DNA of 64,000 nt from an uncultured Nitrospira sp. (GCA_902500805.1 CABVSA010000008.1:2260-66259), one strand, 5' to 3'. Counted from the stretch's first letter, positions 9,778 through 52,387 are shown. The notes: generated by a model not told the origin, from the letters alone. Numbers and translations are program-made.

Positions 9778-9858
9778 CACGGTGCGGTCGAAGGCCCACC
9801 ATACCATGAACCCATGCGTCCCTTGCCTTTTGCATCAAACGCTCGGTAGATTCATCGC

Positions 9859-20131: not shown

Positions 20132-20330
20132 CTTCAAGCAAGAGAAGAGGGTTGAAGCCCTCGCGGTCCCGCCGCTGTAAATGGGGACGAAACCCGGTGA
20201 TGCCACTGTCGCAATGGAGCTGTCAGCCGCCAGCAATCAGCCTTGAGCTGAATGCTGTGAGCCGATAGCTTCAAGAGATGGGAAGGAACGGGGAGTAGGG
20301 TGAACCATGAGCCAGAAAACCTGCTTGAAG
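20132..20330 (+). promoter_or_regulatory. Cobalamin (B12) riboswitch aptamer 1
   Basis: P1 is cttcaagca (20132-20140) paired with tgcttgaag (20322-20330). The core has CCCGCCGCTGTAA, GCCACTG and GATGGGAAGG, plus a B12 box GAGCCAGAAAACCTGC. Confidence 0.85.
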
Positions 20331-20389
20331 ACATGACCGTTGTTCCCTCGAGGCTGGGGAACGGGTGAGGATGAAGAAGCGGGTGCAAT

Positions 20390-24303: not shown

Positions 24304-24330
24304 AGGGGAAGGTGCATCCCTTTTTTCTGT
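24304..24330 (+). terminator. Weak intrinsic terminator after the btuFCD-hydrolase operon
   Basis: Short stem (a)ggga / tccc(t) with loop aggtgca, followed by a T6 run. Confidence 0.35.
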
Positions 24331-24382
24331 TCCAGACTGGTGGATGCCGAGAGGAAGGAGGAAAAAACTCACAACAGAGATA

Positions 24383-24600
24383 GACCGTCAGTGCCGGGGA
24401 AGATGGTGCAAGTCCATCACGGTGCCGCCACTGTAAGCGGGGAGTGACTCTGCAGAACGCCACTGTCTAGGGAAGCTGTTAGCCACTAGCCATCAGCATT
24501 CAGTCAAACCTGATTGCTGAACGCTGTGAGCCAATTGCTTCGAAGATGGGAAGGCGCAGGGAAACGATGAGCCGCAAGTCAGGATACCCAACGGACGGGA
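24383..24600 (+). promoter_or_regulatory. Cobalamin (B12) riboswitch aptamer 2
   Basis: A near-consensus core, GGGGAAGATGGTGCAAGTCCATCACGGTGCCGCCACTGTAAGCGGGGAG. It also has a second GCCACTGTC, GATGGGAAGG and a B12 box GAGCCGCAAGTCAGGATACC. Downstream, CCCTT...AAGGG can sequester the SD GGGAGG. Confidence 0.85.
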
Positions 24601-24635
24601 AACATTCACACCCTTCGAGTCAAAGGGAGGTTTTC

Positions 24636-34752: not shown

Positions 34753-36308
34753 CGGTACAGGCACTTGCTGTTCTGGGAACTGGCTCGGATGTCGGGAAAA
34801 GCCTGATCACAGCAGGGATCTGCCGGGTCCTTCATCGTGCAGGCGTGCGTGTGGCCCCATTCAAAGCACAGAACATGTCGCTGAATTCATTCGTGACTCC
34901 GGAGGGTGGAGAAATCGGTCGAGCGCAGGCACTCCAAGCTGAGGCCTGTGGCATTCTCCCGCATGTCGACATGAATCCCATCTTGCTCAAGCCAGAGTCT
35001 GACACTCGTTCGCAGGTCGTCGTGCGGGGATCCGTATGGTCCACGGAGAACGCTTCGACCTATTTTGAGCGGAGACAGCAGCTGTGGGCCATTGTGCAGG
35101 ACAGCTATGCCAGACTGGCACAACAGTACGAGACTATAGTCATTGAAGGAGCTGGAAGTGCGGCAGAGATGAATCTGCGCGACCGGGATCTGGTCAATTG
35201 GCCTATCGTCGAACTGGCTGATGCCCGAGTAATCCTGGTGGCTGATATTGATCGAGGCGGTGTCTTTGCTCAAGTGCTTGGAACGTTAGATCTGTTGGAA
35301 CCGGACGAGCGAGATAGGGTTTGTGGTGTCGTCATCAACAAGTTTCGCGGTGATCCGAAGCTCTTTGCCGATGGAGTGAGTTTTGTAGAGTCTCGGAGCG
35401 GGATTCCTGTCTTGGGTGTCGTGCCATTTCTTCAAGATCTGATGTTGGACCAAGAAGACAGTTTACATTGGGAAAGGGATCGGCGGGTGGAGTTTTCTAC
35501 AGAACAGATCAATATCGCCGTTATTTCCTTGCCTCATATGAGCAACTTTACCGACTTCAATTCATTGATAGCGGAACCGGATGTGGCCTTGAAGTATGTC
35601 ACCACCCCATCGCTGGTGGAACAGGCCGATATTGTGATCGTTCCTGGGAGTAAGAATACGCTTGCCGACCTATCATATCTCCGAGAGCAGGGGTACGACT
35701 GTATCCTCGATCGTCATGTCTGGAGTGGGGGGGAGCTTGTTGGCATCTGTGGTGGCTATCAAATGCTCGGTCGAACGATCTCCGACTCTTATCATGTCGA
35801 GCAAGGCGGAATAAGTCCTGGTCTAGGTTACTTGAGGATTGAAACTGAGCTGAGTCAGAGGAAGTGCACCGAACAGGTGGAAGCCAATCCAACAGGTACG
35901 CTGGTGGCTGATCAACCCATTGTGAGCGGCTACCAAGTTCATATGGGAGTTACCGTGTATCGGAACGAACGCCCCTGTTTCCGGTTGCAACGTCGTGTCA
36001 CACCGATAGAAGGAACCTATCCATTGACGACTGCACAAGAGGATTCGTGTGATGGGGCCATTCGGGAGGATGGTCTTGTTTGGGGTACCTACATTCATGG
36101 AGTGTTTGATGAGCCTCGTTTTCGTCGAGCCTGGCTCAATCGTGCTCGTGCACGGAAAGGGCTTCTCCCGGTTGGGGTTGACACCTCCCGGTCCGTCACT
36201 GCTCGACTGCGAGGTGAACTTGACCGATGGACAGATCACCTGAGTCGATCTTTTGATATGACACGACTACTCTCCTGCCTATCTCATCGTCGCATACTCT
36301 CCCTGTAA
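34749..36308 (+). CDS. cobQ: Cobyric acid synthase
   Basis: N-terminal VLGTGSDVGKSLITAGICR and a C-terminal GATase domain (GICGGYQMLG, HG). An ATGA overlap joins it to cbiZ. Confidence 0.95.
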   Translation: MTVQALAVLGTGSDVGKSLITAGICRVLHRAGVRVAPFKAQNMSLNSFVTPEGGEIGRAQALQAEACGILPHVDMNPILLKPESDTRSQVVVRGSVWSTENASTYFERRQQLWAIVQDSYARLAQQYETIVIEGAGSAAEMNLRDRDLVNWPIVELADARVILVADIDRGGVFAQVLGTLDLLEPDERDRVCGVVINKFRGDPKLFADGVSFVESRSGIPVLGVVPFLQDLMLDQEDSLHWERDRRVEFSTEQINIAVISLPHMSNFTDFNSLIAEPDVALKYVTTPSLVEQADIVIVPGSKNTLADLSYLREQGYDCILDRHVWSGGELVGICGGYQMLGRTISDSYHVEQGGISPGLGYLRIETELSQRKCTEQVEANPTGTLVADQPIVSGYQVHMGVTVYRNERPCFRLQRRVTPIEGTYPLTTAQEDSCDGAIREDGLVWGTYIHGVFDEPRFRRAWLNRARARKGLLPVGVDTSRSVTARLRGELDRWTDHLSRSFDMTRLLSCLSHRRILSL

Positions 36309-36823
36309 CTTGTGCTTCTTCCCTCCGTCTTCTTCCGGTTGCACATCATCCTTAGTCGTGAAGAAAGGTTCCATCTTGAGCATAAGTTGCTGATATTCAC
36401 GGATTTCTTGCCAACCGTCTACAAGGCGATACACTGCATAAAAACAGTAAGAATCGACCTCAATTAGAGGTCGAACCGCGCGGGTGTAGACAGTATCAGT
36501 GATGACCAGGAGTCCCATTAACTATTGAGTTGGCGAGAATGTGAAGGGGTGCGACAGCCCCTTTTCAATGACCCATTCTAAAGGTGAGAAAGGTTTCACC
36601 GATAAGTTCCTCATCAGCCAAGTGATTACTACGCGCAATCCACTGGGCCGTGGATCCTGAGTATGGCGGTCTCGCCTGTCTCTCGTGTCATGATGCGACC
36701 AAAGGGGAGCGGGATATCGCGAGTTCCAAGAAGGAAGGAATGGAAGAATCGAGACCTCGTGTTCGCACTAAGTGGGATCTGGCGTTGTCCTAGGTGATTC
36801 CTTCCGCAGAGAGGAACAGTCTC

Positions 36824-37186
36824 ATGAGTAAGATCGTGGTTGTTGATGATTCGCAGGCTGAGCTTCAACTCATTGAGTCGTACCTCAAGGCCGCACATCA
36901 TACCGTCGTGACGTTTCCGAACACGGAACAACTTGAAGAGAAAATCCTCACGGAAATGCCGGATCTGATCGTTATGGATGTCGTCATGCCTGGTCGAAAC
37001 GGGTTTCAGGCCTGTCGAGATCTGAAGAGTGATACGCGGTTTACTCGTATTCCGATCCTCCTGTGCACGTCCAAGGGGCAAGAGAGCGACAAATTCTGGG
37101 GCCAACAGCAAGGAGCGAATGGACATGTGGTCAAACCGTTCAAGCCAGAAGAGCTTCTTCTGGCCGTGAAGCGTGCACTGAGTTAA
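36824..37186 (+). CDS. Single-domain response regulator (CheY/PilH-like receiver)
   Basis: VVVDDS, the phospho-acceptor context LIVMDVVMPG, and VVKPF. The ATG at 36824 follows gagagga. Confidence 0.9.
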   Translation: MSKIVVVDDSQAELQLIESYLKAAHHTVVTFPNTEQLEEKILTEMPDLIVMDVVMPGRNGFQACRDLKSDTRFTRIPILLCTSKGQESDKFWGQQQGANGHVVKPFKPEELLLAVKRALS

Positions 37187-37215
37187 TGTACTGATAGTGC
37201 CAAGGGCGGAAAGAG

Positions 37216-37737
37216 ATGCAATTACCATGTGAGCTGCCTCGGCTTATCTCCGACGGTGAGTCAGAGGAGAAAACACCGACAGGTTCGTGGAAAGCCTGTT
37301 TGGTTACTTTAGGGGGAGAACTGTTTGCGATCGATCTGCGTCATGTGCGGGAGGTCTTCGAGTTAGATACGATCACACCGGTTCCCGGTATGCCGGCGTC
37401 ATTGGTTGGCGTCGCCAATGTTCGAGGGACGATTGTACCTCTCGCAGATTTGCGACGGTCTTTGGGAGTCTCGCCATCGACAACTCCACGATATGCAGTC
37501 GTGGTACGACATGATGCTCATCTAATCGGCCTGCTGATTGACGATGTCCCAGAAATTCGATGGATGTTGCCCGAGGACAGGCTCGATCCTTCAGGTGCTA
37601 ACCAGACCGGCGAGCGAGCTCTGTTATCTGGGCTCATCCGGGTGGAGAACCGCGTGAGTGGAATGTTGGAGATCCCAGCATTGGTTGCGTCGGTGGAAGC
37701 AGCAACCCTGGAAGTGAGCCAGTCCGTGAAAGCGTGA
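37216..37737 (+). CDS. cheW: CheW-like coupling protein
   Basis: LVTLGGELFAIDLRHVREVFE...PGMPASLVGVANVRGTIVPLADLRRSLG has the CheW domain pattern. Confidence 0.85.
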   Translation: MQLPCELPRLISDGESEEKTPTGSWKACLVTLGGELFAIDLRHVREVFELDTITPVPGMPASLVGVANVRGTIVPLADLRRSLGVSPSTTPRYAVVVRHDAHLIGLLIDDVPEIRWMLPEDRLDPSGANQTGERALLSGLIRVENRVSGMLEIPALVASVEAATLEVSQSVKA

Positions 37738-37797
37738 GCAGTTCTTCTGAATCAAGTTGCCTGAGCAGGAGTGAGCGCGTGGAGGAGGATGTAGGGT

Positions 37798-39687
37798 ATG
37801 GCCAGGAATAGCAAATCGACGGTTCGACCGTCGCCGTCATGGTTTCAGAACCTCAAGACTCTACCGAAGTTGATCCTCGGGTTTTCGGCTGTCAGTCTCA
37901 TCATGATTTCTGTTGGTCTCGTTGGCCTGATGGGACTTCATACGGTCAAGGGAGAGTTACAGTCGATCTACAACGGATCGACCTTAGCGCTATCAAATGT
38001 TGGAATCGCCAGTACGAACCTCGGTCTCTATCATAGCGCGCTCCTCAATGTAGGACGGCAGGTTGGGAAGAATGAGTTCGATCAAGCGCTCGCTGCGCTG
38101 GCCGAGCTCAAGAAACAGACATTGATTCCCCTGAATGCGTATCAGACATCTCAGTTGCATGAATCAACGAATGGTCGGAGTGAAAGCAAAGATCTCGCCA
38201 GTCTTCACCAAGCATTGCGCGAATATTTCGCCGCAACAGAGGGCTCGGTGGGTGCATTTGCAGAGAGCTTCAGATCATCTCTTCCAGAAGAACAGAAGCA
38301 GAGTATGCGCGAAGTTGGACAATTGGCATTGTCCGTTGATGTTGCGAATAAGTACAACGCGGCGACTCTACGGGTTCGAGAGCTCATGACGACGATTCTC
38401 GACGTAGCAAGAGAAATGAATGACAACGGGCAAGCGGAAGCTTCTCATCGGACGAACGTCGTTCTGGCCGGTTCGTTATTGGCGCTTGTGTTGGCCGGCA
38501 TAATCGGATTCTACCTCGCTGGCTCAATCGCGCGGAACATCACGCATGTTGCCGATGTCGCCCAACAAGCTGCAGCAGGGAATCTTCAAGCTCGAGCCAG
38601 ACTTGAGACCAACGACGAGATCGGGCATCTGGCTAAGGCGTTCAACATTATGCTTGATCGGCTCACGAGCTTGGTTTCTACCGAAGAAGAACGGGATACC
38701 ATGCAGAAACGTTTGGTGCAGTTTCTGGTCCTCGTGTCCGATGTAGGCAAGGGAGACTTGACCAAACGGGGTGAAGTTACGGCTGATATGTTCGGAAATC
38801 TGGCGGACGGTTTTAACCTCATGATCCAACGATTCGCGCAATTGATGAAGCAAGTCAGAGAATCGGCCGAGCGCGTGAATCGATCAGCCGGGGCGTTGCG
38901 AGAGAATTCCGGCCAGATGGCCGGTACCGCCAAGCACCAAGCTGATGAATCGATGAAGACGCTCAGTGCGGTGGAACAACTTGCGGCCTCCATGAGGCAA
39001 GTTGCAGAAACGGCTGGGGCCTCATCCGACTCAGCACGCCAGGTGCTAAAGGCGACAGAGGATGGCCGAGTTGCGGTGCAGGAAACCGTGCAGGACATGC
39101 AGCGTATTCGATCAGCGGTTCAACGGATGTCGAAACAGGTGAAGGCTCTCGGTGATCGCTCGCTGGAAATTTCCCAGATCGTCTCCACGATTCGTGAAAT
39201 CGCCAATCAGACCAACTTACTTGCTTTGAATGCTGCGATCGAAGCCGCAGGGGCAGGCGAGGCCGGTGCTCGATTTGGTGTCGTGGCCGACCAGGTTCGA
39301 AAGCTTGCCGAAAGCTCAACGAACGCAACCCGTGAAATTGCGGATCTCGTGAAGGTGATTCAGAGCGAGACGCAGCACGCCGTCGTGGCAATGGAACATG
39401 AAACGCAGGCGGTAGAGGCAGGATCGGCCTCAGCCCTACGGACCGGTGATGTATTCAAAGAGATTTCAACGATCGCACAACGGTCCGCAGAGCTTGCCCA
39501 AAGCATTGCGGCGGCCGCAACAACCCAGACGGTATCCACGGACCAAGTTGGTCGATCGATCAAAGATTTTACGGGAGGTGCCATTGCGACGCAAAAAGCA
39601 ACCGACTCGGCGCGAGCCACAGTAGAAGATATGGTGAAGTTGGCCGAAGGGCTCACGGCTTCGGTGTCACAATTTAAATTGACCTAA
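37798..39687 (+). CDS. Methyl-accepting chemotaxis protein (four-helix-bundle sensor, HAMP, MA domain)
   Basis: Two TM segments flank a ~170-aa helical periplasmic region. A HAMP domain ([17 protein letters not shown]) is present. The signalling hairpin tip [39 protein letters not shown] is highly conserved. Confidence 0.93.
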
Positions 39688-39735
39688 TGGACCAGGAGCG
39701 AGTACGCACCTCCTCGTCAGTATAGATGCACACCA

Positions 39736-42700
39736 ATGGGAGCGGAGTCTAATCAACCTGACTTGATTCGAGTCTTCGTTTCCGAAGCATCGGATGGAAC
39801 CAGGGTATTAGGAGAAGCGTTACATACCGACAGCAAGCAGATCCCGCCTCCGCACGAAGTCTACGAACATTACATTGTCGCCCATCGCCTTCGAGGAGCC
39901 GCCGCCCTCTACGGCTACGGGGGAGTTTCTCGATTATCTGCTGAGCTTGAAGTCATTCTTGAGCGTGCGAACGACATTGCGCCAGCGGACTGGCCCACGG
40001 TTGTGAGTGTGATGCGGGAGGTCGTCGCTGGGTTGGTGGACTTGATCCAGCAGATTGGGCGCGATGGTCGTGAAGATCCGGATGTCGTGACACGCTGTCT
40101 TGAATCGCTCGAGCGGCTTCAGGTTCTCCCGCCGGCAGTATCAGTCAGTTTGGACTATGTTCATCCTATTATCGACGTTGAGATCCTGTCTTATTTTATC
40201 CCAGAAGCGGAGGAGTATCTCCAGACGATCGTTGAGTTGGTCAGAATGCTTCGTACAACGCGTGACAACGACGATGCCATTTATCGGCTCTTTCGTGCCA
40301 CTCATACCCTGAAAGGATCGGCCTACACCGTTGGGTTCCAGGTCATTGGAGATATTGCCCGCCCGATGGAAGACGGCATGATTGCGGTAAAGGAAAAACG
40401 TCTCGTATTGAGTGATTCTATGCTTGAGGTGTTTGAGAACGCAACTCGAACTGTTCAGTTTCTCTTGCGGCGTGATCCTCAAGCGGGCTACCAACTTCAA
40501 CGCACTGTTCCGGTTTTGATCCACCAACTCACGCAGCTATGTGAGGAGACGGTCTCGGCCAGTCTCTCGAGAGAGACGCCAACGGAAGCTGATGTCGTGG
40601 TACCTCGTCCTGAAATATCTGAGCCGGTCGTCAGTGTAGAGGTGCCTTCTGCAGACCTGTCTGATGCGTATCTATTTCCAGATCTCGATCCAGAAGCCCT
40701 TTCGTATTTCGTTCCTGAAGCCCAAGAATATCTTGAACTCTTGGAAGCGAATCTCCTCCGCTTGGATAAGGAGCCTCAGAATAGGGAGCTGATCAATCAG
40801 CTGTTCCGCACTGCCCATACCCTGAAAGGTTCCGCCTACACCGTTGGATTTCAATCAATCGGCGATCTTGTGCATCATGTGGAAGACTTTATGGGAGCCG
40901 TTCGCGATGGTCGACTGGTCGTACAGTCAGGCCACACGGACCTTATCCTTCGTTCCGTCGATGTGGTGCGGGTACTGATGCGAAGAGACCTCGGCGCAGT
41001 ATCGGGCACCAGGCAACGGTTTGACGCGACCCGGTCCGACCTCAAACGATTAGACCAACAAACCTCTGGTGATGTGACGCCTGCAGCTCCATTCGCTGGG
41101 TCGTCACGAGACTCTGCGTCGTCCCCGATCTCGGCGATGGAGCCCGTCGAGAAGGAGAAGCCGACAGAGGCGAGGTCATTGGAAGATCGTGAAGTCATTC
41201 GTGTCAGTTATGGACGACTCGAACGACTCATGAATCTCGTGGGAGAATTAGTTATTGGGCGAGGTCGATTGGAACAACGGCTACGAGTCCTCGAACAACT
41301 GTCACAACAGGTTTTGGTGTTCAAGTCTCGGTTGGTCGATTCCGTTCAATCCTTTTCTGATAAGCATACCTTTACCTATCAAGAGACGCCTCATGCTGAG
41401 ACGTCGGTTGCGATGCAGGGACCGCTTGCATTCGGTGACTTTGGCAGCCTCGAACTTGATAAGTATGATGACTTCAATATCCTCGCTCGACGTATTAGTG
41501 AAGTGACGGCCGATATCAGCGAGTCATTAGCGCAGCTGGATGGCTCGATTCATCGAGCGCACGACGATATGAGCCAGTTGCAGCAACTGACTCTCTTAAT
41601 GCGAGACGAAATTGCCCATGCTCGCATGGTTCCAATCGGGACCCCATTTACACGATTTCGGCGTGCCATCCGAGAGATTGCGCGTGCCTCAAACAAAGAA
41701 GTGACCTTGGTGACGTCAGGGGAGCAGACGGAAGTTGATACAAGTGTTGTGGAGCGTTTGGTGGATCCTCTCGTCCATCTGGTACGTAATGCCGTTTATC
41801 ATGGGATCGAACCGCCAGCCGATCGACTTGCCAAAGGCAAGCCGCCAGTCGGTACCATCCACTTACATGCCGCGCATCGTGGAAATTCCATGATCATTGA
41901 GGTGGAGGACGATGGAGCAGGATTGGATTTAGCTAAAATACGGGCCAAGGTGGTCAAGATGGGACTGGCCGGTGCACAACAGATCGAAACCATCTCCGAT
42001 GCCGAGCTTCTACAATTGATTTTTCTTCCCGGATTTTCAACGGCTGACAAGGTCGGCGATCAGGCGGGACGTGGAGTAGGGCTGGATGTCGTGAAGCGGG
42101 TCATTGAAGGTATGAACGGCCATATTGCCGTGGAGTCCGAACCCGGTGTCGGAACGAAATTTACCTTGAGCCTTCCGGTCACACTGCTGATAGCCACGGC
42201 CCTGATTGTACGGGCCGGTGCTGAACGTTACGCCATCCCATTGCTCAATATTCAGGAAGTGACCATGCCGACTCCATCGTCATGGCGAGTGGAAGGTGAG
42301 CGTACCGCCTTGCAGGTCGGTGAACACATCATTGAGGTGCAGTCGTTACAGCATTTACTTCGGAGGGAGTGGTGCACTGTTAGTGGAGCGGTGCCGGTCG
42401 TCATTGTCCGTACGGCCGGGGGGCCGATTGGGTTAGCCGTCGATGAGCTATTGGGCAGACAAGAAGTCGTCATTAAATCATTGGGTCAATTGAAACCACT
42501 TGCCCATTCGTTCTTCGGGGGAGCGACGATCGATCCAGAAGGGCGAGTCATTTTAGTGATAGATCCAACACGGCTGGTTGGGCGAGACAGTAAGGAGTCA
42601 CGTGTACAGGCCGTAATTTCCAAGAGCCAGGTTCAGCCACAACAAGTGGTTCCCGATCTGGTGAGGACTGCTGAGCCGAAGGATGTTCGCCTGTTATTAG

Positions 42701-43065
42701 TCGACGATTCCCTGAGTATTCGAAAGTTTGTTGGGAAAATGTTGGAGTCGGCGGGGTATCAGGTTGATACGGCTGTTGATGGAGAAGATGGACTCCGTAA
42801 GGCATCGACCTTCCCATACAGCATGATTTTGACCGACCTCGAAATGCCGAAACTAAACGGATTTGAAGTGATTCAGGCCTTACGAAGACGCTCTGAAACT
42901 CGTGAAACGCCGGTAGTAGTGATGACGACGAGGGCTGGGGATAAACACCGACAGATGGCAATCAGTATTGGTGCAAATTCCTACATTGCCAAGCCCGTTG
43001 AAGAGCGAATGTTGCTTCAGGAAGTTGAGCGGTGGGTGGGACAAGCACGAACGCTTGGCAAGTAA
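39736..43065 (+). CDS. cheA: Hybrid CheA-type histidine kinase (three Hpt domains, HATPase, CheW-like domain, C-terminal receiver)
   Basis: The Hpt motifs are AHRLRGAAALYGY, ATHTLKGSAYTVGF and TAHTLKGSAYTVGF. The kinase boxes are HLVRNAVYHGIE, DDGAGLD, GRGVGLDVV and GVGTKF. A CheW-like region (ERYAIPLLNIQEV) and a REC domain (LLLVDDS...ILTDLEMPKLNG...AKPV) follow. Confidence 0.95.
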   Translation: MGAESNQPDLIRVFVSEASDGTRVLGEALHTDSKQIPPPHEVYEHYIVAHRLRGAAALYGYGGVSRLSAELEVILERANDIAPADWPTVVSVMREVVAGLVDLIQQIGRDGREDPDVVTRCLESLERLQVLPPAVSVSLDYVHPIIDVEILSYFIPEAEEYLQTIVELVRMLRTTRDNDDAIYRLFRATHTLKGSAYTVGFQVIGDIARPMEDGMIAVKEKRLVLSDSMLEVFENATRTVQFLLRRDPQAGYQLQRTVPVLIHQLTQLCEETVSASLSRETPTEADVVVPRPEISEPVVSVEVPSADLSDAYLFPDLDPEALSYFVPEAQEYLELLEANLLRLDKEPQNRELINQLFRTAHTLKGSAYTVGFQSIGDLVHHVEDFMGAVRDGRLVVQSGHTDLILRSVDVVRVLMRRDLGAVSGTRQRFDATRSDLKRLDQQTSGDVTPAAPFAGSSRDSASSPISAMEPVEKEKPTEARSLEDREVIRVSYGRLERLMNLVGELVIGRGRLEQRLRVLEQLSQQVLVFKSRLVDSVQSFSDKHTFTYQETPHAETSVAMQGPLAFGDFGSLELDKYDDFNILARRISEVTADISESLAQLDGSIHRAHDDMSQLQQLTLLMRDEIAHARMVPIGTPFTRFRRAIREIARASNKEVTLVTSGEQTEVDTSVVERLVDPLVHLVRNAVYHGIEPPADRLAKGKPPVGTIHLHAAHRGNSMIIEVEDDGAGLDLAKIRAKVVKMGLAGAQQIETISDAELLQLIFLPGFSTADKVGDQAGRGVGLDVVKRVIEGMNGHIAVESEPGVGTKFTLSLPVTLLIATALIVRAGAERYAIPLLNIQEVTMPTPSSWRVEGERTALQVGEHIIEVQSLQHLLRREWCTVSGAVPVVIVRTAGGPIGLAVDELLGRQEVVIKSLGQLKPLAHSFFGGATIDPEGRVILVIDPTRLVGRDSKESRVQAVISKSQVQPQQVVPDLVRTAEPKDVRLLLVDDSLSIRKFVGKMLESAGYQVDTAVDGEDGLRKASTFPYSMILTDLEMPKLNGFEVIQALRRRSETRETPVVVMTTRAGDKHRQMAISIGANSYIAKPVEERMLLQEVERWVGQARTLGK

Positions 43066-43135
43066 CCGTGCGGAAAGCTTTGGATTGATTGACGAAATAC
43101 GAGTTATTGCAGAGAATGGGCTCGAAGGCGTTGTT

Positions 43136-43672
43136 ATGAGTGTTTCAGGGAAGAGAGAGGAGTGTGTGGGCCCCACTTCCACTTCTCCGCCGCGTTTTGT
43201 CATTACAACGATCGGCGGAAGATATTTGGCATTCGAGGCGGAATACATCCAGGGGGTGCTAACCAGCGAGGACGGGGAATTTCTTCCTGCTCCAGTTGTG
43301 AAAGGCATGACCTATCGGGTGGTCGACCTTGCCGTGCGGCTTAACCTGGCAAGCGAAAGGCGATGGGATGGGACAGAAGTAGTGCTTCTTGCAGATGGGA
43401 CATGCCGAGGTTGTGTGTGGGTTCAGAAGGTCCATGGCATTCTTGAGGCTCATCGGTCTCAAGTCTTACCTCTTCCTGCCCAGTTCTGTGGACCGGAACG
43501 AGGATGGTATCGCGGCATGGTCCTCTTTGACCACAACGTGGCACTCGTCATGAACACTGCATGGGTACTGGAAGAACAGCTCGAGGGAATGCTGTCAAGG
43601 ACTGAGTTACAAGGAACGGAATCTGCCGTGGCTTTGCAAGGAGCGATGGAGAGCAAGAACCAAGCATGCTGA
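43136..43672 (+). CDS. Divergent CheW-like protein 2
   Basis: RFVITTIGGRYLAFEAEYIQGVL...VVDLAVRLNL has the CheW-domain pattern. The ATG at 43136 lies after the cheA stop; the ORF-track start at 42968 would overlap cheA. Confidence 0.7.
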   Translation: MSVSGKREECVGPTSTSPPRFVITTIGGRYLAFEAEYIQGVLTSEDGEFLPAPVVKGMTYRVVDLAVRLNLASERRWDGTEVVLLADGTCRGCVWVQKVHGILEAHRSQVLPLPAQFCGPERGWYRGMVLFDHNVALVMNTAWVLEEQLEGMLSRTELQGTESAVALQGAMESKNQAC

Positions 43673-44115
43673 GAACGAATGGCCATGCTCAGCATCATGC
43701 AGCGCCTCAATCTTGGCATCTTCTGGTATTTTCTGTAGGAGGAAGACGGCTAGCGGTGAGAACTTTGGAAGTGAGTGGGATCTCTCAATGGCGAGAGGTG
43801 ATCCCCGTATCCGGACGAACGCCTTTTGTCTCAGCAGTTGTTCGACTCAACAAGACCGTCCTCCCCGTCTTTGACCTGGCTGCAGCGCTTCGCCGCACGA
43901 TGGGGGGAAACAGTCGCCTGTGCCTAAGGGTGAAACATCCATTAGGCGATACGGTGATCTGTATCGATGAGGAGATTCCGGTTCTGCAGACTCTTGGCCT
44001 CTCAATGATTCAGCCCTATCGAGACCGTGATATGCCAGCCGAAGGAAGCTACGCGCATGGCCAGGAAGAAGTTCCGATTCTTGCGGTGTCTAAATTGGGG
44101 ATGGGTTTGTGGTGA
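43666..44115 (+). CDS. Divergent CheW-like protein 3
   Basis: LLVFSVGGRRLAVRTLEVSGI...VVRLNKTVLPVFDLAAAL has the CheW-domain pattern. It overlaps the preceding gene by 7 nt. Confidence 0.7.
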   Translation: MLRTNGHAQHHAAPQSWHLLVFSVGGRRLAVRTLEVSGISQWREVIPVSGRTPFVSAVVRLNKTVLPVFDLAAALRRTMGGNSRLCLRVKHPLGDTVICIDEEIPVLQTLGLSMIQPYRDRDMPAEGSYAHGQEEVPILAVSKLGMGLW

Positions 44116-44151
44116 TACCCGTTGGTCGCGGGATGAAGGAAAGGTGCGAGT

Positions 44152-45339
44152 ATGCCGAAGATCCTAATTGCGGATGACAGCATTGCAGTGCGAAAAGTGG
44201 CGGAGCGACTCCTCACGGAGGCTGGTTTTCATGTCGCGCTTGCCGCCAATGGAGAAGAGGCCCTCGCCTATCTTGCGAAAGAACAACCCGATGTGGTTGT
44301 GTCGGATGTCATTATGCCGGACAAAAGCGGGTACGAAGTCTGTGCGTTTGTCCGCGGACAGGCCGCGCTTTCGACGACGCCTGTCCTTCTGATCTCCGGT
44401 ATTGTGAATGATGAAGTGACCAAGCAGGCAGAGTCTTGTCGAGCCGATGGGGTCTTGAAGAAGCCGTTCCAAGGTACGTCTCTCAAAGATCGAGTCTTCG
44501 AGCTTCTGGCGAAAAAACAGGAGTCATCTCCCGTCGCCCTGAGTTCACCGACTTCCGTTCCTGGTACAGCGGCAGAGAGCAGTCTCCCTGCATCGGGACA
44601 GCCGTCGAGGAGTGAACCTCAGGAGGCGAATCACCTGAGAGAGCTGGAACGCCAACTGCAGGTTGAGCGTACTCGTTCGGAGGAGCTCACCGATCGGGTA
44701 GCCGCGCTGACGGCACAACTTGTTCGAGCCAAAGACATCGAATCGCAACTGACGATGGAACGTCAGCGAGTGAGCGATGTGCAGCAAACGGTGACGATGC
44801 TTGAGCGGCAGGCCGCAAGAATCCCTGAGCTGGAAGCAGCGTTCAAGTCAGAACAAGATGTCGTCAATTCTCTCAAGCAGGCCTTGTTGAATTCACAGGC
44901 GACTTCGAGTCGGGTGGCAGAATTGGAATCATCTTTGGAAGCTGAACGGGCTGCTGCCGAACAACTCGTCCAGCAGCTTGCTGATTTAGAAGCGATCTCC
45001 GCAAAGGTGAAAGATACAGAAGCGCGGCTGGCGACGGGTCAGCAGGAGATCGTGGATCTTCAGCATGCACGTGCGTCGCTCGAAGCCGAGCTCTCGATCC
45101 AAGGGAAGAAAGAGACTGAAACAGCCGAGCGAATTCAGGAATTGGAAAGAGCCGCTGCTAGAATCCCAGAGCTGGAGGGACTTCTTGTCTCGGAACGTGA
45201 ACGCAATGGAGTGCTTGCGCAGCGGGTGCTGGAAGCGGAGCAGTCCGCTGAGAGTGCGACCAAGCGTTTTGAAGAGCTCGTGAGAAAATTGGGCGAGATT
45301 GCTGGGTTGGCATCTCAACTGGGAAGCGGAAAGGGATAG
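44152..45339 (+). CDS. Response-regulator receiver fused to a long coiled-coil (FrzS-like architecture)
   Basis: The REC domain reads ILIADDS, VVVSDVIMPD and LKKPF. About 270 aa of heptad-rich E/L/A/Q sequence follow, with the repeated unit LER(Q/A)AARIPELE. Confidence 0.85.
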   Translation: MPKILIADDSIAVRKVAERLLTEAGFHVALAANGEEALAYLAKEQPDVVVSDVIMPDKSGYEVCAFVRGQAALSTTPVLLISGIVNDEVTKQAESCRADGVLKKPFQGTSLKDRVFELLAKKQESSPVALSSPTSVPGTAAESSLPASGQPSRSEPQEANHLRELERQLQVERTRSEELTDRVAALTAQLVRAKDIESQLTMERQRVSDVQQTVTMLERQAARIPELEAAFKSEQDVVNSLKQALLNSQATSSRVAELESSLEAERAAAEQLVQQLADLEAISAKVKDTEARLATGQQEIVDLQHARASLEAELSIQGKKETETAERIQELERAAARIPELEGLLVSERERNGVLAQRVLEAEQSAESATKRFEELVRKLGEIAGLASQLGSGKG

Positions 45340-45399
45340 TCGTAGGCTGGGTCTCTGGAGCCCGCTTGTGATCGAGATCGTGCTGAAGGACCGACGCGC

Positions 45400-46338
45400 A
45401 TGCCTGTTGAAACGGAAGACGGGTTTCAGAAGGAACTAGTTGAGCTCTTCGTGCAAGAGGCCCACGAATGGCTTCAGCAGATTCATGTGGCACTTGATGA
45501 ACTTCAACAGGCACCGGAATCTGACAGGCATCGGTCGTTGGCTCAGACGATTAAGGTCGGCATCACCAATCTTGGTGGATCGGCCGCAACCGTCAATCTT
45601 ACAGATGTCGAACGAGCGAGCTTCTCCGCACTTCCATTTGTCGAAGCGCTGCAGGATCCTTCCGCTCGAATTGCGTCCGACGACTTCCTTGCCTTGTGTA
45701 AGCAGTTGGGGCATATCCATGGTGCCCTGACTCGGGCCACCGGAGTGACATTCGAGGCGGCGCCTTCGCAGGTTCCTGAGACCGATATTCCTGCGACCAT
45801 CCCGACCGAGAAACTTCTAACTCTACTCCATGGGCTTCAGATGAAATCCAGCTCATCAGGCACAATTCCGCGGAATCTTATCCGGACCATTACGGCTCAA
45901 ACCGAATCGCTCATCCAGCGTGGTACCGGAGAGTACCAGATCGCTTCAATTCAAGAATTTCTTGATCGCTCGGCCGAAGGGGACCAAGGGTTCCTCGCAC
46001 TTATTCAACAGCACGAGGGCCATCTGACAGATATTCTAGAGGCACTCACCGCAGACGGCATCTCGACTAAGGGAGCTTCACCTGACCTCCTCATGGGCGT
46101 GGAGCGCGTTGCTCAGCTATGGTCGGCTGCGCAACAGGTGAATGCATCACAGGCCATGACATTCTTCATGGGGCTGCATAGTTTTCTCACCATTGTGTCA
46201 CAACAACGCGTTGCCATCTCAGCACAGAGCATGGAGGCTGTTCAGTCGCGTTTGGTCCAGTGTGTACAAGCCATTGAGGAATGGGTGGAAAGTGGGAGGG
46301 CTGAACGGCTCGCTATCCAAGGTGTGTTATTTTCCTGA
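45400..46338 (+). CDS. Hpt-like protein with a degenerate phospho-acceptor site, plus ~200 aa of unknown function
   Basis: The N-terminus FQKELVELFVQEAHEWLQQI...IKVGITNLGGSAATV follows the Hpt pattern (E..F..Ea.e.L...HxLKGSAa), but Thr occupies the His position. Confidence 0.5.
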   Translation: MPVETEDGFQKELVELFVQEAHEWLQQIHVALDELQQAPESDRHRSLAQTIKVGITNLGGSAATVNLTDVERASFSALPFVEALQDPSARIASDDFLALCKQLGHIHGALTRATGVTFEAAPSQVPETDIPATIPTEKLLTLLHGLQMKSSSSGTIPRNLIRTITAQTESLIQRGTGEYQIASIQEFLDRSAEGDQGFLALIQQHEGHLTDILEALTADGISTKGASPDLLMGVERVAQLWSAAQQVNASQAMTFFMGLHSFLTIVSQQRVAISAQSMEAVQSRLVQCVQAIEEWVESGRAERLAIQGVLFS

Positions 46339-46427
46339 ACAGAGATCTCCGTGATCGCTTTCGCTAATTACCGTCAGTGAGTTATCCGCAGTGTATGCTC
46401 TTCTGATGGCAACGGCAGTGCAGGGGT

Positions 46428-47447
46428 ATGATCGTGAAGACGTGGTATGAGCGTGCGATGCAGACTTTGAACGGAGCCGCGCTGGCTGTGCAGGAAAAGC
46501 GCGCTATTCCGATCCGAAGCCTTGAATCGCTTGCTTCGGATATTGTTGCGTCGCTCCATGAGACGGATGAACTCGTGGTCGAGGCGCTGTCCGGGCCACC
46601 TGGCTCGCCATTGCTGACCAACCTCCTGAATGTTTCCATCCTAGGTACCAGAGTTGGGATTGGATTGGGGTACTATGGCGACGAGCTGCATCGACTCGCA
46701 CTTGCCGGACTTGTTCATGATATCGGGTTATTTGCGGTACCGGCAGAATTACTGAGCAAGAGTGGCAGACTCACGCCAGAGGAACGGACGCTGATCGAAC
46801 AACACCCGGAACGCGGGGTCGAGATCATTCTTGCGTGTGACCCCACGTTGCATTGGTTAGCGCAAGTGACATGTCAGGCACATGAGCGATGGAACGGACA
46901 GGGATATCCCCATCGCCTCAAGGGAAGAGAGATCCATGAAATGGCCCAGATCTGTGGATTGCTCGATGTGTTTGATGCCTTAGTGAGTGAGCGTCCATAT
47001 CGGCCCAGGTTGTTTCCGCATGAAGCTGTGAAGGAACTGCTTGTGGCCGAACGGGATACCTTCCCCCGGGAGATTCTTAAGGCACTGGTTGAGCAGTTGT
47101 CTGTGTATCCGCTTGGAACCACGGTCCGACTCACAACCGGAGCGGTGGGAGTCGTGGTGAAGATCAACAGTCGTTATCCTCTTCGTCCGGTCGTGAAGCT
47201 AACCGGCAAAGAGCGAGGAGATGATGTGCAATCTCATGAGCTAGACTTGAGCCTCACTCCGTTGATCTCGGTTATTGAGACCTTAAAGCCTCCTGTCGCA
47301 GGTCAGGTCCAGGTGGGAACGGTATTGTCGAGCCCGCACGCGTCTCCTTCAGTAATTGGTGTTTCGGACCATTTCACATCCTTACTTGAGAGTCTTGACG
47401 CCATCGCATCCACTCTTCAAGCGGTTGTTCAAACCAAAAAGCATTAG
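46428..47447 (+). CDS. HD-GYP domain protein (putative c-di-GMP phosphodiesterase)
   Basis: LAGLVHDIGL (HD), HPERG and AHERWNGQGYPHRLKG (GYP). No receiver domain is visible N-terminally. Confidence 0.88.
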   Translation: MIVKTWYERAMQTLNGAALAVQEKRAIPIRSLESLASDIVASLHETDELVVEALSGPPGSPLLTNLLNVSILGTRVGIGLGYYGDELHRLALAGLVHDIGLFAVPAELLSKSGRLTPEERTLIEQHPERGVEIILACDPTLHWLAQVTCQAHERWNGQGYPHRLKGREIHEMAQICGLLDVFDALVSERPYRPRLFPHEAVKELLVAERDTFPREILKALVEQLSVYPLGTTVRLTTGAVGVVVKINSRYPLRPVVKLTGKERGDDVQSHELDLSLTPLISVIETLKPPVAGQVQVGTVLSSPHASPSVIGVSDHFTSLLESLDAIASTLQAVVQTKKH

Positions 47448-47785
47448 TCTTAATCAATCAGCTCTTCCATCAGCCTTGTTGATACCGCTCTCTGCCCACG
47501 CTTGGTTGTCCTACGACGTCTTCTTTCTTCGCAGAATGTGAAATCCCTCATGGCAAAGATTGACTGTCAGAGCGGTCTTCCGTTGAATGGTCCGTTATTC
47601 ACTGGATGGCCAGATGGAATCTCAAGAAAGTCAATAACATAGATCAATCTTACGGTGATCCCCTAAGAAAAAGGAGAGGAGCTGCGGTGAAATGAAGGGA
47701 GAGATCTCCACTTCTCTGGGAAGCACGACATCGTTATAATACCCCTGCAATGACCCGTTTTCTCGTGAGCTAGAAAGGGAATCGC

Positions 47786-48316
47786 GTGCCAAAACTTATT
47801 ACTGTTCATCACCCGCAGCAAACGACGCAGCAGGCGCTCGAGTACGTGAAGACGTATATTCTTTTTCCATCCGGCTTTCTCGGTCTGGTCTGTTTGGTCG
47901 GGAGTGTTGGAGGGCTTGGGTACCAGTTGCTTGGAACTGATAGTTACACCTGGGATACTTTTTATCAGAGCTCAGGCCTATTTTTGTCCGGGATTGGTCT
48001 GGGAGCGGCACAAACCCTGTATCAGCGATACCTTCTACGAGAGTTCCCAGAAGTGTTGGCTGCACGGATGCGGGACGGTTTGAACAGGCAGAAGGGGAAG
48101 CTCAAGAAACAAACCGCTGCCCCGGACATTGAACATGCAGGACGCCAACTGATTCCACTGGCCTACGGTATGGGTATCCTGTTGCTTGTGGGAAGTGCTA
48201 TCGCCGCCTTCTCGTACGGCCGTGTGCACATGATTCCAGCTATCCTCATGCCATGGGCAGGGTTCTATTGGGCCAAAATGTTCCTCTGGCGGAGAGTGAT
48301 CACCGTTGCAAAGTGA
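47786..48316 (+). CDS. Four-TM membrane protein (hypothetical)
   Basis: 176-aa ORF with a GTG start and four hydrophobic segments. It is convergent with lpxD. Confidence 0.5.
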   Translation: MPKLITVHHPQQTTQQALEYVKTYILFPSGFLGLVCLVGSVGGLGYQLLGTDSYTWDTFYQSSGLFLSGIGLGAAQTLYQRYLLREFPEVLAARMRDGLNRQKGKLKKQTAAPDIEHAGRQLIPLAYGMGILLLVGSAIAAFSYGRVHMIPAILMPWAGFYWAKMFLWRRVITVAK

Positions 48317-48330
48317 TAAGGGACGGGTCG

Positions 48331-49422
48331 TCAGGAACGACGCTTCTTTGCTGCGGACGTTCGTCGTGATGACGTCGAGGCTTGGCGTTCTAGAGCCGTG
48401 ACGCGCTCTTCTAACTTACGGACCGTCTCCCGTGTTTCAGGAAGCTGAAAGATCCCACCCTGAATCCTGAGGGCCTTTTCTCGTGGCATTGCGGGTATGC
48501 CACCGACGATTTGATTTGCTTCGATACTGCGATTGACGCCAGATTTTGCGGCGATCATCACCTGATCACCAATCGTGAGATGATCAGCGAGGCCAGCTTG
48601 ACCGCCGATCATGACATATCGGCCGATAGTCGTGCTTCCAGCGATGCCCACCTGTGCGACAAGGATGCAATGCTCTCCGACAGTGACATTGTGGGCAATT
48701 TGAACCAGATTATCGACTTTGGTCCCCTGTTTGATCAGGGTATGGCCTAAGGTAGCACGGTCGATCGTCACATTCGCGCCGAGTTCCACATCGTCCTCAA
48801 TGACCACGTCGCCGAGTTGGGGGATCTTATGGTGCCGGCCTTGATGTTGAACATAACCGAACCCATCAGCTCCAATGACCGTACCGCTATGAACGATCAC
48901 ACGAGCGCCAAGGGAACAGCCTTCCAGGACCACGACATTGGGATGAAGAACGCAATCATCTCCGATCGTTGAATCTGACCCAACAAAGACCCCCGGGTAG
49001 AGAGTCACTCGATTGCCAATCGTCACGCGATCGCCGAGCGTCACAAACGGCCAAATGGATGGATCAGATCCAATTCGTACATCAACCCCTTGCATGACTG
49101 AATCGGCGATTCCTCTAGGCGACGGTGTCTGCACGAAAAATCTCTGTGCCACACGGGCGAATGCCAGCATGGGATTGTCGACCACGATCTGTGGAATGGC
49201 CAGATCCGGCTGATGTCGATGGATCAGGAGGGCAGCAACCTGGGCATGTGCGGCGGCTTTGGCCATTTTGTCGTTGGTCACAAAGGACAAAGCACAGGAG
49301 TTGGCTTGGCCGAGGCTGGTCAACGCAGAGACCTGGGTCTGGAGGTCACCGTGAACGGTCCCACCAACGACTTCATGGATTTGGGCAAGCGTGAGGGGTG
49401 TGGGGAGTTGAGGTCTGCTCAT
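48331..49422 (-). CDS. lpxD: UDP-3-O-acylglucosamine N-acyltransferase
   Basis: An N-terminal LpxD-type domain ([12 protein letters not shown]...[12 protein letters not shown]) is followed by left-handed beta-helix hexapeptide repeats and a catalytic-His context QIAHNV. The basic C-terminal tail is [18 protein letters not shown]. Confidence 0.9.
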
Positions 49423-49877
49423 CGTGTTGCGCCCTTCTTCTTGGCCTTCGAGGCCGCTGAGGATATCGCCTTGGGCTTCTTCGAGGAGGCAGGTTTTGGT
49501 TTGGGCGGCGAGGGTTTCTTTGAAGCGGACCTTGACGAGGGGGCCTTCTTCGAGGCGGATTTCCTCGAAGGTGTTTTGGAGGATGCTCCTGGCTTCAGTG
49601 ATTCGGATTTAGCATTCGACGTGGATGCCGCGAGCTGTCGTTGGACGTAGGCAGCCACGGATCCGACGGTACTGAGCCCGGGAAGATCTTGATCGGGAAT
49701 TTGAAGCTTGAAGCGTTCTTCGATCTCGAACAACAATTCGATGACGGCGACTGAGTCGAGTCCGAGGTCATCTCGGAGATGGTGGCTCTCCGTAATGGAC
49801 GCAGGGTCTCGCTTGAGGTAGGTGGCCAAGGCATGCACGATTTTTTCGGTGATCGCAGGGTCGATCCGCTCAGTCAT
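49419..49877 (-). CDS. Acyl carrier protein with a ~60-aa Lys/Ser/Pro-rich C-terminal extension
   Basis: GGAG lies 8 nt before the ATG at 49877. The phosphopantetheine site is [13 protein letters not shown]. The tail reads [44 protein letters not shown]. An ATGA overlap joins it to the lpxD start. Confidence 0.85.
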
Positions 49878-49956
49878 TATGAGTACTCCTTCAGTGGAAT
49901 GAGGCTCTTCGCTGTAGCGTCCGCGAGGAGGCGCCTCACTATCAATCATTCAGTAG

Positions 49957-51213
49957 TTACGCCACAAATTTCTTGAAGACCACGGTGGCATTGTTGCTGC
50001 CGAATCCAAATGCATTTAAGAGGGCATACCGAATCTTTCGTTCTTGCACCGTCCGACGAATGCCGTCCAAGCGACAGTCTGGGTCAGGTTCCTCATAGTT
50101 AGCGGTCGGGTGAATCTGCCCGGTATGGATCGCCATCGTCGTGGCAACGGCCCCGATCGCCCCGGCTGCGCCGAGCGTATGGCCGACGAGAGACTTTGTG
50201 GCATTGATGGCAATCTTGTCCGCACGATTCTTGAACAAGTTCCGGATCGCCTTCGTTTCGACCGCATCTCCGATCGTGGTCGACGTCGCATGGGCATTGA
50301 TGTAGTCGACCTGATCGGCCCCGATCCCGGCAGATTCCAGCCCGATCTTCATGGTCATACTGATCTCCTGTCCATCCTCCTGAGGAATAACCATATGGTA
50401 GGCTTCGCTCGTCGCGGCATATCCGGCGATCTCGGCATACACTCTGGCCTTCCGTTTCTTGGCATGTGCCAAAGACTCCACAATTAATGCGGCTGCCCCT
50501 TCACCCATGACAAAGCCGTCTCGACGTCGGTCGAATGGTCGTGACGCGCGTTCAGGGGCATCATTAAACTCACTGGATAGGGCGCGTAGAGAGCAGAACC
50601 CTGCAAAGACCAGCGGGGTAATGCTGGCATCAGCGCCAACGGCAATGACGACATCGGCCTGACCGGTGCGAATGCAGTGGAGCGCCTGGCCAAGGGCATG
50701 AGCGCTGGACGAACAAGCCGTTGAGATCGTGAGGTTCGGGCCTTTGGCTCCATGCGCCATGGCGACAATCCCCGAGGCGGAATTGAGGGTAATGGTTGGA
50801 ATAAAATTAGGGTGGACACGATGGGGGCGTTGGGTTTTAAAGAGCTGTGTAATCTCCCGCTCACCCATGACCATTCCGCCCATGCCCGCTCCGACAATGA
50901 CTCCGACGCGGTGGGGACGTTCTTTTGTCATATTGAGGTCGGCGTCAGCCAACGCTTCCTTCGCAGCGACTAAGGCAAACTGTGCATAGCGATCGACGCG
51001 ACTGGCTTGGGTGGCAGTCAGGTATTGTTCTGGTGAGAAATTATGGACTTGTCCCGCTACTCGAGAACGGTAGTCCGACATGGGGACCCACCCCAAGGAG
51101 GGAATGGCGGTTACTCCCGAACGACCGGTCATGGCCGATTTCCAGAACTCACTCACACCGATCCCGATCGGAGATATCACCCCAAGACCTGTGATCACAA
51201 CACGTGAGGCCAT
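49957..51213 (-). CDS. fabF: Beta-ketoacyl-ACP synthase II
   Basis: RVVITGLGVISPIG, the active-site Cys in ISTACSSSAHAL, the catalytic His motifs INAHATST and LVGHTLGAAG, and the C-terminal NAFGFGSNNA. Confidence 0.93.
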   Translation of the reverse strand: MASRVVITGLGVISPIGIGVSEFWKSAMTGRSGVTAIPSLGWVPMSDYRSRVAGQVHNFSPEQYLTATQASRVDRYAQFALVAAKEALADADLNMTKERPHRVGVIVGAGMGGMVMGEREITQLFKTQRPHRVHPNFIPTITLNSASGIVAMAHGAKGPNLTISTACSSSAHALGQALHCIRTGQADVVIAVGADASITPLVFAGFCSLRALSSEFNDAPERASRPFDRRRDGFVMGEGAAALIVESLAHAKKRKARVYAEIAGYAATSEAYHMVIPQEDGQEISMTMKIGLESAGIGADQVDYINAHATSTTIGDAVETKAIRNLFKNRADKIAINATKSLVGHTLGAAGAIGAVATTMAIHTGQIHPTANYEEPDPDCRLDGIRRTVQERKIRYALLNAFGFGSNNATVVFKKFVA

Positions 51214-51291
51214 GCTTCTCCCTCCTTATAGTGGCGCCACGGCGCCTTTCTTACCGGAAGACCGGTAGACAGTCAACTAAGAAACGGGTGT

Positions 51292-52383: not shown

Positions 52384-52387
52384 CGTG

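Follow-up and report, generated by a model that had tools for sequence, protein, structure and literature searches.

A chemosensory gene cluster of Nitrospira with a proposed output module of a receiver-coiled-coil protein, a pseudo-Hpt protein and a partly degenerate HD-GYP domain

What does a chemosensory pathway control when its genes begin in the order known from type IV pilus (Tfp) systems and end with an HD-GYP protein? This question is raised by a 64,000-nucleotide stretch of DNA from an uncultured Nitrospira sp. (GCA_902500805.1 CABVSA010000008.1:2260-66259), hereafter the window, in which nine open reading frames (ORFs) on the + strand at positions 36824-47447 form a putative operon, designated g1 to g9. 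Judging from their sequences, it is proposed that the nine genes constitute a single Nitrospira-specific chemosensory pathway without cluster-encoded methylation adaptation, in which the first four genes are of a known Tfp-like kind and the output half (g7-g9) together with two extra CheW-like genes appears to be new. In treatment plants as in soils and waters, members of Nitrospira are the main nitrite oxidisers as well as complete ammonia oxidisers, and they grow there in dense aggregates. The pathway, which occurs genus-wide and may control behaviour on surfaces or in aggregates, is a concrete candidate for how Nitrospira make such decisions.

Domains were assigned with Pfam, considering matches above the gathering cut-offs, and with NCBIfam models for CheA. 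A preliminary description of this DNA had listed nine co-directional genes separated by small gaps or overlaps and had named a set of domains for them; all of the ORFs were recovered at their + strand coordinates and the Pfam profile searches matched each of the named domains, the only product without a Pfam match being that of g8. From g1 to g9 the intergenic distances are 29, 60, 48, 70, -7, 36, 60, and 89 nt, the 70 nt between g4 and g5 turning into an overlap if g5 starts at the TTG at 42968. The core set of a Che pathway is complete, comprising the signaling domain of a methyl-accepting chemotaxis protein (MCP), CheW, a CheA with Hpt, dimerisation, HATPase_c and P5 domains, and a receiver. 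Searches of the literature on Nitrospira Che clusters, on HD-GYP proteins in Che clusters and on CheR/CheB in Nitrospira revealed no published description of the unit, which agrees with the earlier statement that no described pathway with the last five genes as a unit was known to its author.

A scan of one genome per GTDB species gave 94 matching loci; the 80 retained belong to Nitrospira/Nitrospiraceae but for a few probable mis-binnings. Among the species loci with enough flanking sequence, 53 of 61 have the complete set of nine genes with order and orientation unchanged, and g8 identity in them is as low as 47%. In addition, four loci (L071 and L074-L076) are devoid of g1, g5, and g6, and in these the CheW-MCP-CheA(REC) genes, REC denoting a receiver domain, directly abut g7-g8-g9. 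The conserved order and the reduced variant joining CheA to g7-g8-g9 substantiate the view, already expressed in the preliminary description, that the last five genes go with the CheA core. One further relative (L085) retains g1-g8, and neither the HD-GYP gene nor a remnant of it is present.

The first member of the output half, g7 (44152-45339, + strand), encodes a CheY-like receiver (Pfam Response_reg, E 1.7e-23), a Pro/Ser linker and a coiled-coil-like tail of about 220 residues, a receiver fold followed by a long coiled coil being a FrzS-like architecture. The phospho-acceptor set of the receiver is full (D8, D9, D51, S82, and K103) and its best solved-structure matches are CheY proteins; the complete acceptor residues and the closeness to CheY make g7 a plausible CheA substrate, unlike the pseudo-receiver of FrzS. 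Assignment of g7 as a FrzS-type pseudo-receiver was discarded since every acceptor residue is present, and FrzS is not among the 53 solved-structure matches listed for g7 at E <= 1e-10. The coiled coil was deduced from composition and weak coiled-coil Pfam matches: the tail (residues 166-385) consists of 66% A/E/L/Q/R/K with near-zero Pro and Gly, and contains an internal repeat. Residues 224-260 and 338-374 share the repeated motif AARIPELE, the copies lying about 114 residues apart. The length of the orthologues ranges from 208 to 522 aa, which together with the repeat suggests that the tail grows and shrinks by repeat units.

The second member, g8 (45400-46338, + strand), is read as a tandem pseudo-Hpt protein, with an N-terminal CheA-P1-like domain bearing Thr56 and a C-terminal helical, weakly Hpt-like domain. 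A profile of the g8 family matches the P1 domain of Thermotoga maritima CheA (2LD6, E 6e-9; 1TQG, E 3e-8) with the His aligned to Thr, and alignment with P1 of Escherichia coli CheA likewise places Thr56 at the position of H48. In 45 diverse members of the family (down to 24% identity) the acceptor position is occupied by Thr in 40, Ser in four, and Ala in one, and by His in none of the 45, inside a strongly conserved [TS]-N-L-G-G-S-A-A-T motif; an Hpt-like protein with a mutated His had been noted before, and this trait extends to the whole family. A true Hpt function for g8 was rejected, as no family member has the His. The AlphaFold2 (AF2) model of g8 is confident and all-helical with two domains (mean predicted local distance difference test score, pLDDT, of 83), and Foldseek gave template modelling (TM) scores of 0.65-0.73, normalised to the target, to P1 structures. 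A profile search of 1.84 billion representative proteins retrieved 184 at E <= 0.001, and every genomic context examined for the family was the same chromosomal spot on a Nitrospira-like contig, beside the same CheA. The pseudo-Hpt family, which is without a Pfam model, thus appears restricted to the Nitrospiraceae, having been seen only there in the sequences searched. The closest homologues of g8 (93-95% identity) occur in Nitrospira sp. BLG_1, UBA5698, and a 'CMX' metagenome-assembled genome.

The last gene, g9 (46428-47447, + strand), encodes a protein of 339 aa with an HD-GYP domain whose metal and catalytic site is partly degenerate (Pfam HD_5, E 1.1e-28, and HD), a small C-terminal beta region and a terminal helix. 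The HD and GYP motifs are H97-D98 and G159-Y160-P161, respectively, and the best sequence matches are PmGH (4MCW), V-cGAP3, PA4781, and DvhD. The AF2 model is weak (pLDDT 62, from a ten-sequence alignment) and its Foldseek matches are HD-GYP structures only, PmGH and PA4781 being the best in fold as in sequence and DvhD being included; the beta region (232-287) received no assignment from this weak model and Foldseek. The residues of g9 were mapped on PmGH, taking conservation from alignments of the g9 family. The metal ligands H97 and D98 of the HD motif (PmGH H221 and D222), H126 (H250), H152 (H277), and D180 (D305) are invariant, as are K111 (K235), Y160 (Y285), and R189 (R314), the equivalents of residues that contact cyclic di-GMP (c-di-GMP) in PmGH; a fourth such equivalent, R192 (K317), is at least 90% conserved in the wider sets and invariant in the nine closest orthologues. 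Conversely, substitutions fixed in the family affect the catalytic residues D183 (S60 in g9) and K225 (L101) and the metal ligands E185 (L62) and H276 (A151, by which the HHE motif reads AHE), and the metal ligand H189 has no counterpart in g9, a loss that is also fixed. Altogether, g9 keeps five of the eight metal ligands of PmGH and loses five residues important for catalysis, three of which are ligands. In PmGH each of the substitutions H189A, H276A, K225A, and D183A abolishes activity, while RpfG, which is also devoid of equivalents of E185 and H189, was reported to be active (PMC4159591).

On this basis g9 is probably mainly a c-di-GMP-binding or very slow-turnover module and not a bulk phosphodiesterase, and physiologically meaningful hydrolysis of c-di-GMP by g9 is considered rather unlikely. 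There are precedents for such domains: the HD-GYP domains of DvhD (PMC13090378) as well as those of HnoD and ECA3548 (bioRxiv 10.1101/2021.11.05.467447) are non-hydrolysing and act by binding c-di-GMP or by interaction only. With these proteins g9 shares the HD-GYP fold, altered catalytic motifs and probably a use in c-di-GMP binding or regulation by protein-protein contacts, but it is less degenerate, retaining HD, H126, H152, and D180, and its partners would be a pseudo-Hpt protein and a Che cluster and not PAS, REC or PilZ domains. The preliminary description had suggested that the output of the pathway is c-di-GMP hydrolysis and/or polar localisation rather than flagellar switching, conceptually the opposite of Wsp. 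The part on hydrolysis did not stand, given that the equivalents of D183, E185, H189, K225, and H276 are gone family-wide while the c-di-GMP contacts are kept, and that the HD-GYP gene is absent from a relative keeping the rest of the cluster; such an "anti-Wsp" phosphodiesterase output is less likely. The degenerate site, the retained contacts and the relative without the gene point instead to the receiver-coiled-coil protein and the tandem pseudo-Hpt protein as a scaffold that would be the conserved output.

The composition of the cluster around g8 and g9 varies among relatives. Several g8-family matches of about 600-740 aa are composed of an HD-GYP domain and a C-terminal g8-like module. 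An HD-GYP protein with a fused g8-like extension was found in 24 of 68 relatives and a gene encoding an AAA_22 ATPase between g8 and g9 in 39 of 68; both features coincide in 12 of these 68 and 17 have neither, including those nearest to the window (L001-L009). In Nitrospira moscoviensis (L054, 11858-13939) the HD-GYP protein is 693 aa long, the fusion versions measuring about 690-740 aa across the 24 loci; its extension shows 27-29% identity to full-length g8 with Thr at the site, and the species also has a stand-alone g8. These C-terminal fusions of a g8 paralogue to the HD-GYP protein tie the g8 and g9 families together. The AAA_22 ATPase (L054, 10964-11851 in N. moscoviensis), which has no counterpart in the window, has its best NCBIfam match in an XrtA/PEP-CTERM system-associated ATPase (197 bits vs a cut-off of 324), which hints at a link of the cluster to exopolysaccharide (EPS). 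Moreover, in 25 of 60 loci an intact Tll0287-like heme/PAS gene, which may be an ancestral sensor component, lies directly upstream of the cluster. The window contains a heme/PAS-type remnant of it (PF11845; 36632-36748, + strand) of 39 codons with the CXXCH motif kept and 54% identity over 39 aa to the N. moscoviensis protein (tblastn), and the remnants in L001 and L004 have stop codons inside. The remnant, the absent AAA_22 gene and the missing extension of g9 mark the cluster of the window as a trimmed form of what was ancestrally a larger one.

A few sequences depart from this picture in other ways. L017 (Nitrospira sp. RSF1, 1-10000) contains g8, the HD-GYP gene and half of g7, and no che genes upstream despite a 10-kb flank, which may be a rearrangement or a mis-assembly. 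Short contigs with cluster genes also occur in metagenome-assembled genomes assigned to other phyla. One labelled Candidatus Omnitrophota (L031) encodes a g8 that is 65% identical to that of the window, and an HD-GYP protein labelled Terriglobia (P0275) clusters with a Nitrospira sequence at 90% identity; both look like mis-binned Nitrospira contigs and not like horizontal transfer.

The gene g1 (36824-37186, + strand), preceded by a Shine-Dalgarno-like motif (GAGAGGAA) upstream of its ATG, encodes a single-domain CheY-like receiver of 120 aa (Pfam Response_reg, E 4.8e-24) that is 69-96% identical in relatives, and g2 (37216-37737, + strand) a canonical CheW of 173 aa covered over its full length by the Pfam CheW model (E 2.3e-30). 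The receptor g3 (37798-39687, + strand) is a transmembrane MCP with a periplasmic 4HB_MCP_1 domain, HAMP and MCPsignal. Compared with E. coli Tar, its signaling hairpin contains 14 + 14 extra residues placed symmetrically about the tip, equivalent to about four heptads more, and aligned to CtpM it shows no length difference. Most of the methylation-site positions of Tar are not Glx pairs in g3, which fits a methylation-independent receptor, an assignment that can be made only weakly. The hybrid kinase g4 (39736-43065, + strand; 1109 aa) contains three Hpt domains, H-kinase_dim, HATPase_c, a CheW (P5) domain and a C-terminal Response_reg, and is matched by NCBIfam CheA models at E 1e-94 to 1e-123. 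For Hpt, two stretches are scored by Pfam; the alignment with E. coli CheA P1 displays three segments, all of them with His at the position of H48. The two additional CheW-like proteins are divergent. g5 (+ strand) probably starts at the ATG at 43136 and ends at 43672, the start being uncertain because the ORF opens already at 42968; it scores 31.5 bits against the Pfam CheW model (cut-off 23.5), has no BLASTP similarity to g2 or g6, and its orthologues in relatives are 33-93% identical. g6 (43666-44115, + strand), whose start overlaps the stop of g5 by 7 nt, is a partial CheW-like protein (34.7 bits) that covers positions 2-60 of the 138 of the Pfam CheW profile, that is, the first half only, and is 22% identical to g2 over 90 aa.

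With CheR, CheB, and CheZ of E. coli MG1655 as queries for tblastn and phmmer, neither the 64-kb window nor the 10-kb surroundings of the cluster in 82 related loci yielded a match, the sole exception being the receiver domain of CheB, which matched REC domains. The lack of a methyltransferase and a methylesterase pointed out previously for the locus holds for the surroundings of the cluster in these relatives as well. According to Pfam scans, the other large ORFs of the window encode cobalamin uptake and salvage proteins, an LpxD-like/ACP/KAS/LptFG block (ACP, acyl carrier protein; KAS, ketoacyl synthase), a P450, transporters, and housekeeping proteins, with no pilus or flagellar genes among them, and no histidine kinase other than g4 was found in the window.

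Comparison with known systems delimits what is particular to this cluster. It resembles Pil-Chp of Pseudomonas aeruginosa in the order receiver(s)-CheW-MCP-CheA, in a CheA that combines several phosphotransfer domains with a C-terminal receiver, and in the presence of more than one CheW; the REC-CheW-MCP-CheA order and the multi-Hpt CheA-REC confirm that the first four genes match the Tfp arrangement, as had been recognised at the outset. On the other hand, Pil-Chp encodes PilK (CheR) and ChpB (CheB), of which there are none here, and no pilus genes lie near the Nitrospira cluster. ChpA of Pil-Chp has Thr- and Ser-type 'Xpt' domains (PMC12632253), and FimL is a separate, polar protein whose two Hpt-like domains carry Gln instead of His at the acceptor sites and which links Pil-Chp to the adenylate cyclase CyaB (PMC3019171). 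In architecture g8 parallels FimL and the 'Xpt' domains of ChpA and is likened to them by design; it differs from FimL in having a conserved Thr/Ser instead of Gln and a link to an HD-GYP protein instead of CyaB.

When g4 was compared with a plasmid database by tblastn, the best match was a Deinococcus CheA (33% identity over 86% of g4), a search that also returned thousands of generic kinase matches and whose use is limited to pointing at Deinococcus Tfp-like clusters. The Deinococcus megaplasmid cluster shares the REC-CheW-MCP-CheA(Hpt...REC) arrangement and has no methylation enzymes annotated. In cyanobacteria, the Tfp-type Pix, Tax, and Hmp systems are likewise without CheR/CheB, and Hmp systems add the coiled-coil protein HmpF. 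The cyanobacterial Pix, Tax, and Hmp systems and the Deinococcus cluster carry PATAN/DUF4388-type partners (DUF4388 in Deinococcus), whereas neither domain was found in g1 and g7, in which Pfam identified Response_reg only; conversely, those systems are without a pseudo-Hpt protein, an HD-GYP protein and the extra divergent CheWs. The Frz system of Myxococcus xanthus has a CheA-receiver fusion, with FrzF and FrzG as its CheR and CheB. It includes FrzB, a divergent truncated CheW-like protein comparable to g6, and FrzS, a receiver with a long coiled coil comparable to g7, but the receiver of FrzS is a pseudo-receiver and g7 keeps all of the phospho-acceptor residues. Wsp, of the ACF class, ties chemosensory signalling to c-di-GMP and has a hybrid CheA-REC as well as two CheWs (PMC8846402), by which the present cluster, with its proposed link to c-di-GMP, resembles it. 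The output of Wsp is, however, a REC-GGDEF cyclase that is phosphorylated directly, and Wsp has CheR and CheB; in the Nitrospira cluster the c-di-GMP module has no receiver, its HD-GYP domain is degenerate and it would be reached, if at all, via adaptor proteins. Membership in the Wsp type was ruled out, as there is no GGDEF domain, CheR or CheB.

Altogether, the reading favoured here is that of a chemosensory pathway acting through a scaffold of a REC-coiled-coil and a pseudo-Hpt protein on a c-di-GMP-binding HD-GYP domain; as a whole it is tentative, and is held with slightly less than an even expectation of being correct. In this model the receptor g3, coupled via the CheW g2, would control the hybrid kinase g4, with g5 and g6 probably serving as extra array scaffolds. 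Phosphoryl groups would pass from the three Hpt domains of g4 to the CheY-like receivers, among which g1 and the REC domain of g4 itself would probably be a sink or modulator and g7 the output receiver phosphorylated by g4. The Hpt-like surface of g8 would dock receivers without His-Asp transfer, so that g7 and g8 could together make up a scaffold whose design recalls FimL/PilG or FrzS and which recruits or regulates g9, the latter chiefly binding c-di-GMP. The physiological target may be surface or aggregation behaviour (pili, adhesion or EPS), a guess prompted by two hints: relatives have an EPS-type ATPase, and Nitrospira live as aggregates.

Several observations weigh against this model or loosen its parts. 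As L085 is without the HD-GYP gene, the coupling to c-di-GMP may be accessory. The flanking LpxD-like gene and a 176-aa ORF are equally syntenic in relatives, and hence the synteny within one family is in part plain vertical inheritance. A scan for promoters and terminators in 36200-48400 gave counts equal to the shuffled expectation and, being at chance level, says nothing on the operon structure. With respect to g8, the whole model produced no Foldseek match at E <= 0.001, only generic helical bundles and P1 domains appearing, FimL not among them; the comparison of its N- and C-terminal halves by hhalign was weak (P 2.6e-4, probability 42%, with Ala at the C-terminal site), and the suggestion that the C-terminal half is a second, more degenerate Hpt-like bundle is correspondingly weak. 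As for g9, the window's protein has no fused extension, which means that the argument from fusion applies to it only indirectly, and since RpfG is reported to be active without E185 and H189 equivalents and g9 keeps HD, H126, H152, and D180, residual or binuclear activity is possible.

This last point leads to the alternative that c-di-GMP is in fact hydrolysed in a regulated manner, CheA and a receiver acting on the Hpt-like protein to activate g9 as a true phosphodiesterase, the inverse of Wsp. The invariance of HD, GYP, H126, H152, D180 and the substrate contacts, the example of RpfG (PMC4159591) and the strong conservation of g9 (56-91% identity in relatives), which argues for a selected function, all speak for it. 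Against them stand the family-wide replacement of H276 by Ala, K225 by Leu, and D183 by Ser, when the matching Ala mutants of PmGH are inactive (PMC4159591), the lack of a receiver domain in g9 and the loss of the gene from a relative with the rest of the cluster; regulated hydrolysis is considered unlikely, although it is the strongest of the competing explanations. The cluster could also be a Tfp-class system whose output is type IV pilus polarity or motility via g7 and g8, in the manner of PilG/FimL/FimV or FrzS, with the HD-GYP protein as a dispensable accessory that matters little for c-di-GMP. This would agree with the REC-CheW-MCP-CheA order and multi-Hpt CheA-REC, with the Deinococcus clusters being the closest plasmid-borne relatives, in the same order and with no annotated CheR/CheB, with a receptor about four heptads longer than Tar, and with an invariant core g1-g8 from which the HD-GYP gene was lost in one relative. 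The AAA_22 ATPase in the cluster of 39 of 68 relatives can be read either way, since it is of the ExeA/MshM type but best fits the PEP-CTERM/EPS-associated ATPase model, which favours EPS over pili. Neither the window nor the ±10-kb flanks contain pilus genes, and a PATAN-type receiver is absent; a pilus output is regarded as improbable, more so than hydrolysis.

The least probable of these explanations, to which very little weight is given, is that two or three independent units happen to adjoin, namely a che operon comprising g1-g6 and an unrelated REC/Hpt-like/HD-GYP unit under another kinase. The gaps of 36-89 nt before g7, g8, and g9 could hold promoters and the whole neighbourhood is collinear in the genus, unrelated flanking genes included. 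Nevertheless, the window has no second histidine kinase, the receiver of g7 is CheY-like and the g8 domain specifically CheA-P1-like, the reduced variant drops g5 and g6 and still has g7-g9 abutting CheA, and the g8 family was seen only beside this CheA. A bolder proposal is that the conserved Thr/Ser of g8 is a real phospho-acceptor: the ATP-binding domain of CheA would phosphorylate Thr56 in trans, likewise the g8-like extension fused to HD-GYP, and a stable phospho-Thr switch would gate the c-di-GMP-binding HD-GYP module. It is regarded as a long shot; if true, it would turn a labile His-Asp relay into a stable phospho-Thr switch, and the puzzling 'Tpt/Spt' domains, which were first described in ChpA, would gain a biochemical role.

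For studying the role of non-His "Xpt" domains, g8 is more tractable than ChpA or FimL: this pseudo-Hpt protein is compact and separable, has a conserved hydroxyl residue at the acceptor site, and in relatives a paralogue of it is naturally fused to its probable partner. With g9, the few HD-GYP domains with a probable receptor or adaptor role gain another member, which, to our knowledge, would be the first of them embedded in a Che cluster.

Downstream of the cluster, at a distance of 338 nt, lies the ORF of 176 aa mentioned above (47786-48316, + strand), which has no Pfam or NCBIfam match. Where the flank downstream is long enough, nearly all relatives have it after the cluster, with 52-97% identity, including the relative devoid of the HD-GYP gene; it may be either a tenth member or no more than a conserved neighbour.

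Elsewhere in the window, a tRNA-Gly(CCC) is located at 19111-19185 and two cobalamin riboswitches (Rfam RF00174) on the + strand at 20119-20342 and 24321-24609 (66 and 80 bits, respectively), upstream of a periplasmic-binding-protein/FecCD transporter set and a TonB-dependent receptor; these are followed by the cobalamin salvage genes for CobT, CobS, CobD, an aminotransferase, CbiZ, and CobQ. Finally, a conserved block on the - strand (48331-53479), convergent with the Che cluster, encodes the LpxD-like acyltransferase, an acyl carrier protein, a ketoacyl synthase, and two LptF/LptG permeases; the pairing of ACP and KAS with LpxD is unusual and may specify a special acyl chain of lipid A.

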